Shown here: piece after piece, positions 31,257-33,396 of the stretch
How the letters are laid out: the number at the start of each line of letters is the position of its first letter
How positions within the stretch are numbered: position 1 is the stretch's first letter
Assembly (NCBI GenBank): GCA_049274945.1
Contig: JBASTP010000001.1
Coordinates: forward strand, 1-58,881
Reading direction: 5' to 3'
Origin: Patescibacteria group bacterium
Lineage (GTDB): Bacteria; Patescibacteriota; UBA1384; GWA2-35-9; JBASTP01
DNA length: 58,881 bases
Notes under the pieces: model-generated
What the model was told of the DNA's origin: nothing
The model's input: the letters and a program-made list of their open reading frames with translations, nothing else
Database searches by the model: none
Program-made: the position numbers and the translations under genes

Positions 31257-31727
31257 GTCTTGCTCGATGCTAGTTTAGCTCGAGAGAGCTCTTACCAGGG
31301 TCAGCAAGACCCGACCGGCCGCTCGTTCGTTGGATAGTCGGCTTCGCCGATTCGAGGAGGTATTAGCGGCCGGTCAGCAATTTTCCAATTTTTCCAGGTT
31401 TGGCCGCCGCAAGGCGACCCATCAAGTTTCCCGGGGAGGCTCATTTGGTACTTGGCACATTGTGCCCGAGTGGACAGTAGCATCCCCGGGAATCCCTACC
31501 CACTTTTTGGAACCTGCGGGTTCGTCACAGACTAAGCCTATAAAGGCTCGTAGAAAACTTCAGCCCGCAGGTTCCTGCTCTTTTGAGGGTCGCGACCGCA
31601 GGAGGGATCAGCTAGGAAACTAGCTCGTTCAATACTTGTCGCGGCCCTCACTTTTTCCCAGAATTGCTCGTTAAGTATCTAGCTCGCAAGGGCTCAAAAT
31701 GAACGCAGCAATTCTGGGGATTTTTTT
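31257..31727 (+). ncRNA. structured ncRNA 1 (about 470 nt, unknown class) upstream of the IS110-like gene
   Basis: Promoter TCGACA, 17-nt spacer, TATAAT (31245-31250). Stems GTCTTGCT/AGCAAGAC (31257/31303), GACCGGCCGCT/AGCGGCCGGTC (31313/31365), TTCCCGGGGA/TCCCCGGGAA, GGAACCTGCGGG/CCCGCAGGTTCC, and terminal CCCAGAATTGCT/AGCAATTCTGGG followed by a T-run at 31721-31727. Confidence 0.65.
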
Positions 31728-31845
31728 ATTGACACTTCGACATTACTCAGTGTCAATCCTAAGTTTATCGAATGGATTGACAGACTCTTGTAAACCTGAT
31801 ACGCTAACCAGTCGTACATCGAAAACCGATTGAAAGGAGCTCACC

Positions 31846-33015
31846 ATGCCAGCTTCGAGACTCGTGATTGCGATTGGCCGTAATACCCATACGCTGGTAT
31901 ATTCCATTGGCGATAACGAAATCATCGAACAAGCAGTACCAAACAGCTCAGAAGCGATTGCGGCAATTCAATCAGTGAATGCCGATCAAATCATTGTTGT
32001 TGGTAATTACCAATGGGCCCTGCCGCTTGGGTTTGCCCTGGATAGCGCTGGCATACCCTGCCGATTTGTGCCGAAACCCACTGCCAAAGGCAAGCGGCAA
32101 AGTATGATTAAGTTCGCCCAAGTAATCTTGGGCACTCAAGAATATGGCCGTCCTTTCCCTGGCGAAGAAATCCCGCGGCCAAAGCAGTCAATCGAGCAGC
32201 AAGAGCAAGATCAGCACCCGGTATACAAAATGGGACTGCTGTATCTTGAGGCAACTGATGGAGTACGGCGGTTGAAGCACAAAGTGATGAGTATGGTCGC
32301 CGTCCTCTTTCCTGAAGCTGTCCGGCCATCCATGGCCGAGCTCAAGAAAGATATGGAAGGTCACTATCTCAAACCGGTGCCGCACCCAATACCACCGGAC
32401 CTCTGGACAAAAAAAATGAGATTTGTGCTCCAGAACCCGGACCCGTCTATGCTTAGAAACACCACCGAAAAGATACCCGATGAGGTTCGTACGCTTGCGC
32501 AGGATTCCTTGGGATATTCAATTCCCCTCCAACTGCGCGCCCATTATCAAGGCCTGCTTGATCAATACCTCACGCAACTGGCACTGGCAGAAACGCACAA
32601 AAAATCAACCATGGCTGCGCTGAAAGAATCAATACAGAAACTGCCCGTGGCCATGCGCCTTGTGGCATTATTCCCGGATTCTGAAACTGCCTGCGTGCTT
32701 GCCGCAGGCTTGGGGTGGCGCAACTGGGATAACTGGAGGGAACTGCAATTATTCTGCGGTTTAGCCCCAACTCGGATTGACGACAAGGGCAGGCGCCATA
32801 TTTCACGAGTGCGCGGCCACATTCGCCAATACCTCTACCTTATGGCATTTCTGACCACCAAGGGAAAAATCTGGTCACGGGTGCCAAAAACCCAAGTGAT
32901 TGACGGGCAAGAGGTAAAAGTTAAACATCTCCGAGTACGGCGCATCAAGGCGCTGCTGCGCGCACTCAAAACATATGCGTTGCAATCAGAGCCAGTTCCA
33001 GATCCGGAACTGTAA
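31846..33015 (+). CDS. IS110-family transposase-like protein, apparently lacking the catalytic residues
   Basis: AAAGGAG ribosome-binding site. It has family-like blocks: LVIAIGRNTH (vs GIDVSK), IIVVGNYQW (vs vvEaTG.Y), LFPEAV (vs FPEL) and FCGLAPTRIDDKGRRHISRVRGHIRQYLYLMAF (vs GLaP...SGk....is..G...lR..L..aA). The conserved D, E, D, D and S positions are not acidic/Ser in my manual alignment. Confidence 0.6.
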   Translation: MPASRLVIAIGRNTHTLVYSIGDNEIIEQAVPNSSEAIAAIQSVNADQIIVVGNYQWALPLGFALDSAGIPCRFVPKPTAKGKRQSMIKFAQVILGTQEYGRPFPGEEIPRPKQSIEQQEQDQHPVYKMGLLYLEATDGVRRLKHKVMSMVAVLFPEAVRPSMAELKKDMEGHYLKPVPHPIPPDLWTKKMRFVLQNPDPSMLRNTTEKIPDEVRTLAQDSLGYSIPLQLRAHYQGLLDQYLTQLALAETHKKSTMAALKESIQKLPVAMRLVALFPDSETACVLAAGLGWRNWDNWRELQLFCGLAPTRIDDKGRRHISRVRGHIRQYLYLMAFLTTKGKIWSRVPKTQVIDGQEVKVKHLRVRRIKALLRALKTYALQSEPVPDPEL

Positions 33016-33038
33016 CTTCAACAAAGAATCAGTTGCAA

Positions 33039-33068
33039 CTGCCGCCCCAAGCGCGGCAGTTTTTGTTT
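33039..33068 (+). terminator. intrinsic terminator after the IS110-like gene
   Basis: CTGCCGC ... GCGGCAG followed by TTTTTGTTT. Confidence 0.65.
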
Positions 33069-33106
33069 GGTATGAAAAGTAAAAGTATATTTGCTATAAT
33101 AATAAG

Positions 33107-33396
33107 GTCTTGCTCAATGTATACTAAGTCCGCAGGGACTCGCAAGATACTTAGCAAGACACGACCGGCCGCTCGTTGGTCGCTTAGTCGGCTTGCCGAC
33201 TCGAAAAAAACTCAAGCGGCCGGTCAGCCCTTTTTCCAATTTTTCCAGGTTTGGTGGCGCGCTCGTTGTAGAAATTAGAACCCTCGGGTTCTCGTTACCA
33301 GTTTAGCGCGCCACCTCCAATTTTCCCCTGAGTTGCTCGTGGTTCTTTTAGCCCATATGGGCTCGAAAGGACAATAGCAACTCTAGGGGATTTTTT
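33107..33396 (+). ncRNA. structured ncRNA 2 (about 290 nt), paralog of ncRNA 1
   Basis: Extended -10 TGcTATAAT (33092-33100). It shares the 5' stem (33107/33153), the GACCGGCCGCT/AGCGGCCGGTC stem (33163/33215) and an identical 23-nt linker TTTTCCAATTTTTCCAGGTTTGG (33232-33254). The terminal stem is CCCCTGAGTTGCT/AGCAACTCTAGGGG followed by a T-run. Confidence 0.65.

Follow-up and report, generated by a model that had tools for sequence, protein, structure and literature searches.

A probable stem-loop TIGR-Tas locus with two guide arrays and a nuclease-dead TasR-type effector between fusA and tuf of a Patescibacteria bacterium

TIGR-Tas systems form a very recent class of compact RNA-guided DNA binders that act free of a protospacer adjacent motif. 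They were defined by Faure et al. (2025; PMC12045711), who described dual-repeat arrays as well as tandem stem-loop arrays, the latter with two spacers of 8-12 nucleotides (nt) bordered by boxes C and D, and who speculated that the clade from the candidate phyla radiation (CPR) may be an intermediate towards box C/D systems. A catalogue of 2,559 stem-loop arrays, which may flank tas on both sides, was then published by Xu et al. (2026; bioRxiv 10.64898/2026.09.09.750476) together with the structures, from cryo-electron microscopy, of a pair of effectors, PateTasR and CsTasR, whose RuvC domains are dead. In that preprint, boxes C and D are two symmetric CUU/UG motifs with the C paired to the G, an 18-bp site is recognized through 9 + 9 nt, and the outcome is a reversible RNA-guided repression of transcription; the Tyr/His processing loop is missing and a CUU motif lies at the stem bases. 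In the CPR TasR clade, a longer loop (over 12 nt) separates the spacers and, according to Xu et al. (2026), folds into a second hairpin. Here we describe a locus of this kind in 58.9 kb of DNA (contig JBASTP010000001.1, assembly GCA_049274945.1, positions 1 to 58,881; hereafter the window) from a Patescibacteria group bacterium. The window covers two arrays of hairpins, the gene of 389 codons that they flank, which we call tas, and the neighbouring genes. The original prediction for this DNA had seen two paralogous, highly structured RNAs of unknown class (ncRNA 1 and ncRNA 2) on either side of a gene of the IS110 family, and had likened them to bridge or seek RNAs.

We consider it highly likely that this CPR (Patescibacteria) bacterium carries a stem-loop TIGR-Tas system at the locus, composed of two guide arrays and a nuclease-dead TasR-type effector. 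The RNAs are a new, uncharacterised member of the stem-loop TIGR-TasR systems and not a new RNA class, and the tas locus is a chromosomal CPR example located between fusA and tuf. With the CPR systems of CsTasR and PateTasR it shares the type of host, arrays on both sides of the gene, two spacers of 9-10 nt between short symmetric motifs, a second hairpin between the spacers, stems that vary but covary, a RuvC-like domain without catalytic residues and a short C-terminal tail without the Tyr/His dyad; moreover, a member of the same protein family, P0005, is a seed of the Tas profile. It differs from them in the motif itself (UCG/UA in the window, CUU/UG in the published systems), in having CUU in only part of its linkers and in the length of the protein, since its 389 aa compare with 329 aa for PateTasR and 547 aa for CsTasR; the window protein is identical to neither.

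Two other groups of TIGR-Tas systems are further removed. The stem-loop TIGR-TasA system PlTasA, from a Peromyscus leucopus gut contig (Faure et al., 2025; Guan et al., 2026 preprint), also has tandem stem-loop units in several sub-arrays, dual spacers with box C/D-like flanks, processing into single units (in PlTasA) and an effector without nuclease activity. However, TasA has no RuvC-like domain, and the loop between its spacers is short and carries no second hairpin. In the dual-repeat systems TIGR-TasR and TIGR-TasH (TaTasR, SpTasH), two spacers of about 9 nt likewise read opposite DNA strands and a coiled-coil dimer carrying Nop-type domains binds the guide, but the guides are 36 nt long, have conserved edge and loop repeats and no long stems, and are processed by a Tyr/His dyad that is missing from the window protein, and the nuclease is active.

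The features of the locus are given below; bits are scores under the covariance model R1 and z is the z-score of the fold of the single unit, both explained further on.

31222-31250, + strand: promoter-like site of array 1, TCGACA-17-TATAAT, 11 of 12 consensus matches
31257-31727, + strand: putative upstream stem-loop TIGR array (ncRNA 1, array 1), with six units, one long linker, one small hairpin and a terminal T-run
31257-31310, + strand: array 1 unit 1, stem GTCTTGCT/AGCAAGAC, loop strands CG-ATGCTAGTT-T and CT-TACCAGGGT-C, 42.4 bits, z -3.9
31313-31375, + strand: array 1 unit 2, stem GACCGGCCGCT/AGCGGCCGGTC, loop strands CG-TTCGTTGGA-T and CG-AGGAGGTAT-T, 39.4 bits, z -4.8
31376-31427, + strand: array 1 long linker, with a 23-nt pyrimidine-rich stretch shared between the arrays (31381-31403) and a small GCAA-loop hairpin (about 31403-31418)
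31428-31492, + strand: array 1 unit 3, stem TTCCCGGGGAGGCT/AGCATCCCCGGGAA, loop strands CA-TTTGGTACT-T and CG-AGTGGACAG-T, 32.5 bits, z -4.8
31509-31575, + strand: array 1 unit 4, stem GGAACCTGCGGGTT/AGCCCGCAGGTTCC, loop strands CG-TCACAGACT-A and CG-TAGAAAACTT-C, 38.5 bits, z -7.0
31584-31650, + strand: array 1 unit 5, stem TGAGGGTCGCGAC/GTCGCGGCCCTCA with an inner GAAA-loop hairpin, loop strands CG-CAGGAGGGA-TC and CG-TTCAATACT-T, 33.9 bits, z -6.7
31655-31720, with a T-run to 31727, + strand: array 1 unit 6, a terminator-like end, 45.4 bits, z -6.9
31846-33015, + strand: candidate tasR-type gene (tas), 389 aa, with a RuvC-like N-terminal domain without catalytic residues, a coiled coil and an IS110-Tnp/Nop-like C-terminal domain
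33037-33061, + strand: terminator-like hairpin and T-run 3' of tas, in a stretch 100% identical to that of the related locus L001
33072-33100, + strand: promoter-like site of array 2, extended -10 TG-TATAAT, 10 of 12 matches with TG
33107-33396, + strand: putative downstream stem-loop TIGR array (ncRNA 2, array 2), with four units and a terminal T-run
33107-33160, 33163-33225, 33253-33315 and 33325-33389, + strand: the four units of array 2, 46.0-50.9 bits

Direct reading of the sequence recovered every stem, linker and T-run that the original prediction had listed. These were the 5' stem GTCTTGCT/AGCAAGAC (31257-31310 and 33107-33160) and the stem GACCGGCCGCT/AGCGGCCGGTC around AGTCGGC..GCCGAYT (31313-31375 and 33163-33225), both present in the two RNAs, the identical 23-nt TTTTCCAATTTTTCCAGGTTTGG (31381-31403 and, in the linker of array 2, 33232-33254), the stem GGAACCTGCGGG/CCCGCAGGTTCC of ncRNA 1 (31509-31575) and its GAAA-loop hairpin (within 31584-31650), the stem GGTGGCGCGCT/AGCGCGCCACC of ncRNA 2 (33253-33315), and the terminal stems GAATTGC/GCAATTC in ncRNA 1 versus GAGTTGC/GCAACTC in ncRNA 2, each followed by a T-run. 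The two RNAs are indeed paralogous and strand-specific, combining a conserved scaffold with variable parts, and arrays 1 and 2 can be aligned through the first ~150 nt as well as at the 3' ends. What did not survive was their reading as two monolithic RNAs: one array consists of six and the other of four independent hairpin units with two spacers each, and the long perfect stems of the supposed central domain of ncRNA 1, although present, belong to separate repeat units of one design. The promoters attributed to each RNA were also found, as promoter-like sites: TCGACA-17-TATAAT lies upstream of array 1, where L001 has TTGACT-17-TATACT at the same position, and an extended -10 lies upstream of array 2. 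In both arrays, the end of the -10 hexamer is 7 nt from the first base of the first stem. Because a separate terminator-like hairpin with T-run follows tas (33037-33061), ncRNA 2 appears to be a transcription unit of its own. The last unit of each array, with the T-run behind it, probably doubles as a terminator. The small GCAA-loop hairpin of the array 1 linker occurs in L001 too and may be a remnant or a processing context.

The units were delimited by a simple stem search followed by manual dissection. Each is a hairpin of 54-67 nt in which an outer stem of 8-14 bp leads through a symmetric internal loop to an inner hairpin; the latter has 5-7 bp, ends in a loop of 3-4 nt and measures 13-17 nt in all units. 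Both strands of the internal loop have the same form, in which the helix end GCU is followed by CG, 9-10 variable nt, U and the start of the next helix, AG(C). The consensus of the unit is GCU|CG-N9-U|AG...CU|CG-N9-U|AGC with U-A closing pairs, and since both loop strands share one form, the unit is pseudo-two-fold symmetric. Conserved letters are confined to GCUCG and UUAG beside the helices. We propose that the two stretches of 9-10 variable nt in each unit are spacers (A and B), with UCG before and UA after them in what would be, by position only, the places of box C and box D. The putative box C pairs through its first base with the last base of box D (U-A).

Both regions were highly structured, as originally suspected. 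The minimum free energy of 31257-31727 was -217.1 kcal/mol, compared with -155.3 +/- 6.4 in dinucleotide shuffles (z -9.7), and that of 33107-33396 was -131.9 kcal/mol, compared with -83.0 +/- 5.1 (z -9.7). When the ten window units were folded singly, z ranged from -3.8 to -7.5 and both helices were kept in all ten. No Rfam family, and thus no known housekeeping RNA, matched the whole window at gathering thresholds, and a search of the region itself with E up to 10 gave chance-level matches only. Strong covariation emerged when homologous units were aligned, using 27 distinct units from the window and the related loci L001, L016 and L017 and scoring the columns of the eight inner pairs of the outer stem and the three closing pairs of the inner hairpin (11 pairs). 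Cells were paired in 97.6% of cases, versus 28-47% with partners slid by 1-3 columns, and a change on both sides was seen in 10 of the 11 pairs (80 cells). Among 500 shuffles, none reached the observed values for percentage paired, pairs or cells with changes on both sides, or covariation score, and one did so for further pair types. The outer stem was 97.7% paired, with changes on both sides in seven of its eight pairs, three to six pair types in five of the eight, and GCU/AGC ends as its only near-invariant part; the three closing pairs of the inner hairpin were 97.5% paired, all of them with changes on both sides. As the units are largely paralogues with different stem sequences, this covariation is real and does not stem from shared ancestry of one helix. 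Spacers A and B of the same unit could form a mean of 4.85 pairs, versus 4.98 when strands were exchanged among units; the loop strands are genuinely unpaired with each other.

The covariance model R1, built from the 27 units, found exactly ten matches in the window, six in array 1 and four in array 2, all on the + strand (32.5-50.9 bits). The next-best match in the window scored 14.7 bits (E 0.23), and the reverse strand of the ten places 8.5-12.5 bits. The motif is specific to one strand and occurs only beside a single gene. The architecture of the unit, the covariation of its helices, its strand specificity and its clustering exclusively around tas are established by these data.

The same design was established near relatives of tas from other clades. 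The loci that encode P0004, P0005, P0008, P0024 and P0048 have long non-coding flanks made of hairpin units with two loop strands of ~10 nt and an inner hairpin, located on both sides of the gene in some loci and downstream only in others. The units of P0004, P0005 and P0024 use another motif, UGG after the helix and UG before the next helix. Because of such differences in motif, the covariance model of the window clade does not detect the units of distant clades, which were found by stem search and folding. In two loci with an identical P0005 protein, the interior of the third downstream unit is completely different. As a separate observation on these loci, L003 (6110-7045, compared with L002 7759-8610) has an IS1595-family transposase gene 135 nt upstream of the tas gene for the identical P0005 protein, in place of the 850-nt upstream non-coding region of L002 and L006. 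One P0003-locus unit lies on the opposite strand of the short contig L019 (53-108) but on the + strand of the otherwise identical contigs L017 and L018; the inversion is probably an assembly artefact at a palindrome.

A close relative, L001, encodes a 97%-identical protein in the same fusA...tuf context and allowed us to follow the arrays over a short evolutionary distance. Nucleotide identity between the window and L001 was 97.9% for tas, 98.1% for the 79-aa gene and tuf that follow the module, 98.0% for the 3' end of fusA and 100% for the 3' untranslated stretch of tas, versus 93% for array 2 and 55% for array 1. Across seven orthologous unit pairs, identity was 95% in the outer stems, 86% in the 2-nt motifs, 70% in the inner hairpins, 56% in spacer A and 45% in spacer B. 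Within array 1 (31257-31727 in the window, 371-868 in L001), several unit interiors, that is spacer A, inner hairpin and spacer B, were swapped wholesale while the outer stems were kept. Between the two versions of array 1, one whole unit was gained and one lost; the GAGGGTCGCGAC unit is found in the window only, with L001 lacking array 1 unit 5, and a GGTGGCGCGCT unit lies within array 1 in L001 only. The outer-stem slots (GTCTTGCT, GACCGGCCGCT, GGYGGCGCGCT, ..., GAGTTGCT) follow each other in an order that can still be recognised in L017, which encodes a 59%-identical protein. Rapid spacer turnover is established by these comparisons, and a conserved scaffold with fast-changing strands of 9-10 nt is, as judged from these alignments, a guide signature.

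How the interiors are exchanged is a matter for speculation. Guides could be renewed cassette by cassette in fixed scaffolds, through a dedicated spacer exchange or through stem-templated recombination, with, as a weaker addition, a neighbouring island of short repeats and repeat-associated mysterious protein (RAMP)-like genes perhaps acting together with the arrays; we regard this idea as unlikely, and if it were true, the window and L001 would be a natural before-and-after case of spacer renewal. In any event, the locus adds a chromosomal CPR example, a UCG/UA variant of the motif that flanks the spacers and, with L001, a close relative that tells kept from swapped parts of the units. The comparison is useful for studies of array dynamics or for guide design and does not reveal a new kind of system.

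Homology to Tas came from the protein family of the window gene. In a collection of 5.8 billion proteins nine relatives were found, and a family profile gathered 57 representatives (at 50% identity) among 1.84 billion proteins, the named sources being Patescibacteria. Over 96% of its length, the window protein shares 40% identity with P0005 (E 3e-61). Data S1 of Faure et al., which aligns the seeds of their Tas profile, opens with AF-A0A0G0W7R5, AF-A0A0G1Q325 and AF-A0A7C4KXR8, with which three family members share most of their 7-mers (P0024/A0A0G0W7R5, 162 of 187; P0005/A0A0G1Q325, 150 of 181; P0048/A0A7C4KXR8, 155 of 189); this establishes the homology to Tas seeds. When the supplementary tables of Faure et al. 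(2025) were queried for contig and protein accessions of the related loci, the matches were the Data S1 seeds only. We looked for PateTasR and CsTasR among the family representatives and considered P0040 (329 aa) and P0050 (544 aa, versus 547 for CsTasR), but the residues named in the preprint fit neither and both candidates were rejected.

No Pfam model matched the 389-aa protein at E 0.1 or better, PF01548 gave no match, and a sequence search against the chains of the PDB returned coiled-coil noise only. Models of IS110 responded weakly (NF033542, E 1.5e-4, 21 bits with a cut-off of 140; PF02371, Transposase_20, E 0.14, 13 bits with a cut-off of 21.3). The AlphaFold2 monomer model, with a mean predicted local distance difference test score (pLDDT) of 85, begins with an RNase H/RuvC-like domain over residues 1-105 and further contains two long helices (125-154 and 228-263) and a C-terminal helical domain with short hairpins whose last helix ends at residue 379. 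The tail behind it consists of 10 residues, QSEPVPDPEL, without Tyr or His. By analogy with solved effectors, the coiled coil would serve dimerisation, with one dimer per guide. The top Foldseek matches in the PDB were the bridge recombinases ISCro4 and IS621 (E 8e-6 to 1.5e-4, full-length alignment), followed by chains of the small-subunit processome, archaeal Nop5 (3id5_A), Nop56/58-fibrillarin (2nnw_A) and Prp31, with local matches to RuvC (4ep5) and YqgF (7w89). A 40-sequence family profile aligned with IS621 (E 0.0076; family segment GLA.TRIDSKG..ISR.RP.IRQYLY), and in this alignment D11 of IS621 falls on Ala and E60 on Val. Before residue 132, no position is acidic in at least 60% of the 40 family members, and the loss of the catalytic residues is established on this basis. 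The position of the IS621 serine is Asp313 in the window and, among the 40 relatives, Ser in 19, Ala in 9, Gly in 5, Asp in 2 and His in 1. A conserved serine of the IS110 type, promising in a first alignment of 10 sequences, was rejected when it failed in 40.

For the stem-loop TIGR-Tas system that we favour, a mechanism can be drawn up by analogy. Each array would be transcribed from its own sigma-70-type promoter, on the same strand as tas and starting at the first base of unit 1, and the transcripts would end at a unit with a T-run. A host RNase could then cut the primary transcripts in the linkers, releasing single units as for CsTasR and PateTasR. One coiled-coil protein dimer would clamp one unit through the four motif positions, with the Nop/IS110-Tnp-like C-terminal domain as the RNA-binding part of the effector. 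The two spacers would base-pair with opposite DNA strands, A in one half-site and B in the adjacent one, together addressing a site of ~18 bp. Since 8-nt 3' overhangs have been reported for TasR, the target should read as spacer A plus the reverse complement of spacer B. The complex would occlude DNA without cutting and block transcription or otherwise interfere with the target replicon. That the arrays are transcribed and processed, that the protein binds the units, that DNA is targeted and that repression results are all points that we infer from the systems studied so far.

Several observations weigh against this assignment. The motif is UCG/UA, compared with the published CUU/UG of PateTasR and CCA/UG of TaTasR, and the names box C and box D can be given by position and symmetry only. 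CUU occurs in four of seven inter-unit linkers (31493-31508, 31576-31583, 31651-31654, 33226-33252), which are T-rich so that chance could account for it, and is missing from both 2-nt linkers and from 33316-33324. The 50 best Foldseek matches listed include no Tas structure, the closest solved structures being the IS110 recombinases. An hhalign comparison with the 15 other, non-CPR Tas seeds was modest (probability 48%, E 1.9e-4, 81 columns in the GL...R..R..L region). Targets are also lacking where we searched. For none of the ten units did the window contain a site with up to two mismatches to A plus reverse complement of B, or to reverse complement of A plus B, with gaps of 0-2. Exact 18-nt targets gave 1, 1 and 15 scattered matches in three scans of viral contigs and 11 matches in unrelated taxa in one scan of species-representative genomes, all at chance level, in database scans that have no power to find an 18-nt target. 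Window sites with 3-4 mismatches numbered 29, compared with ~28 expected by chance according to our own calculation, and single loop strands had exact matches of 9-10 nt in the window at about the chance rate. The complementarity that had been envisaged between loop strands and the neighbouring array repeat or the junctions of the island likewise stayed at chance level when tested. A candidate outside the window, the second spacer of L001 428-487 (ATTCAAGGA), agrees with the island repeat GAATCAAGGAA at 8 of 9 positions; it was rejected, as 11% of shuffles equal it. The L001 genome has no island.

A true TIGR-Tas locus could also be decaying or inactive in this genome, which we consider very unlikely. 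Codon differences from L001 are what would speak for decay, with 12 non-synonymous and 7 synonymous in tas versus 1 and 19 in tuf, as do the departures from the motif in array 1, where unit 1 has CU for CG before its second spacer and unit 3 has CA. However, the reading frame is intact and of full length, both helices are kept in ten of ten units, and both promoter-like sites and both array ends are intact. Eleven of the 12 amino-acid differences, mostly conservative, fall within residues 342-376 (window 32869-32973), which form a beta-hairpin and the last helix. Such a cluster might have arisen by co-adaptation with the altered arrays or as a recombination patch.

The structural matches to Nop5, Nop56/58 and Prp31 bring up another interpretation, in which the locus is a bacterial box C/D-like ribonucleoprotein, a 'proto-snoRNP' whose units guide a Nop5-like scaffold to RNA for modification or binding. 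The resemblance to the archaeal and eukaryotic box C/D ribonucleoproteins (Nop5, fibrillarin, L7Ae) extends to a Nop-type scaffold, an inactive RuvC-like N-terminal domain and a pseudo-symmetric layout with two guide strands, as in archaeal C/D sRNAs, and the speculation of Faure et al. about the CPR clade points the same way. Nonetheless, the units have no RUGAUGA/CUGA boxes and no k-turn signature, Rfam gave no C/D match, and no methyltransferase partner is known. In addition, the two studied dead-RuvC TasR proteins of the CPR/stem-loop type bind DNA and repress transcription, with no RNA activity reported, and DNA is presumably the target here as well. Turnover of spacers between 98%-identical genomes would be unexpected for guides directed against conserved rRNA or tRNA. 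Taken together, the evidence makes an RNA-directed system of this sort highly improbable.

The IS110 family, to which the original prediction assigned the gene, provides a further alternative: a working mobile element whose flanking RNAs are bridge or seek RNAs guiding donor/target recombination. The tie to this world is genuine. IS621 and ISCro4 were the best structural and profile matches, the NCBIfam IS110 model responded (E 1.5e-4), the bridge recombinases and the IS1111 seekRNA systems share the three-part protein architecture, and they too carry guide strands in hairpin internal loops encoded beside the gene, loops which those of the units resemble. A 63-nt direct repeat bounds the module, and a related Berkelbacteria locus with the same neighbours has no module. 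Yet the sequence is only marginally IS110-like, at 21 bits for a family cut-off of 140. The positions of the DEDD tetrad lack conserved acids (D11 to Ala, E60 to Val), and at the serine position the window protein has Asp, and only 19 of 40 relatives have Ser; since neither acids nor serine are conserved, a protein with this IS110/Nop architecture cannot be a DEDD-plus-Ser recombinase, and the gene is no transposase. Bridge RNAs are single molecules with two loops, whereas the locus has ten loops in two arrays (6 + 4 single-loop units). There are no IS ends, the module is in single copy in 58.9 kb, and no loop strand matches the junctions, the direct repeat or another window site beyond chance. 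The predicted outcome here is binding and not recombination. A mobile element of this type is therefore scarcely credible, although the intuition of a bridge-RNA-like system was sound in its evolutionary sense, given matches to ISCro4, IS621 and Nop5-type proteins, and before 2025 the locus would have counted as a discovery.

That the units are generic palindromic or terminator-type repeats (repetitive extragenic palindromic-like elements or attenuators) without guide function and only incidentally close to the gene has very little to recommend it, for while palindromes are common in bacterial intergenic regions and the T-run after the last unit of each array could mark a plain terminator, the units occur nowhere else in the window, are strand-specific, keep to one interior geometry in which conserved motifs occupy four symmetric positions, go along with the gene family in six or more clades under a motif particular to the clade, and turn over their loop strands while keeping their stems.

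Around the stem-loop TIGR-Tas module, the direct repeat is represented by two copies.

31152-31214, + strand: left copy of the direct repeat, 63 nt, with a T-run, the CCCCTTGAC promoter box and ATGGCAGA; 90% identical to the right copy
33391-33453, + strand: right copy of the direct repeat, with the promoter and start of the 79-aa coiled-coil gene (33442-33681)

The repeat bounds the tas module and is derived from the promoter region preceding the 79-aa gene. The promoter box occurs a third time, in a more distant version, before tuf (33690-33765), and the first codons of the 79-aa gene (ATGGCAGAAAAAGAA) resemble the start of tuf (ATGGCAGATAAATAC). These features suggest that recombination at this promoter led to an insertion or duplication.

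In L001, array 1 follows directly after fusA, whereas the window has a 3.5-kb island (about 27683-31222) in between. The island contains three blocks of the short repeat TTCCTTGATTC(GWCG), with ~24 copies separated by unique spacers of 37-72 nt. Of these blocks the first is inverted, around a promoter-like site near 28131, and together they flank two open reading frames, ORF A (28617-29618) and ORF B (29654-30526), both of which end in a glycine-rich loop, GLGGGR..GQF. With the model of ORF A (pLDDT 69), the top 50 PDB matches were all CRISPR subunits of the RAMP/Cas7 type, with Cmr-beta as the best (6s6b_I, E 1.5e-3, probability 0.98), Csm3 and Cas7-11 next and the type IV Csf2 also among them. 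ORF B had a weak match to Csm4 (E 0.063). Neither Cas1, Cas2, Cas6 nor Cas10 was found near the island, and ORF A had 8 homologues in 5.8 billion proteins. The island looks like a minimal CRISPR-like system with unusually short repeats and may be more novel than the TIGR-Tas locus.

The same island is located directly upstream of tuf in a Candidatus Berkelbacteria genome (GCA_016196985.1; L044, 1-3700), which has neither the tas module nor the 79-aa gene. Since the island occurs there without the tas module, the two were inserted at the fusA-tuf junction independently of each other. The Berkelbacteria island has the same repeat, an ORF A that is 83% identical, an ORF B and the same terminator, and it has some spacers in common with the window, but in a different block.

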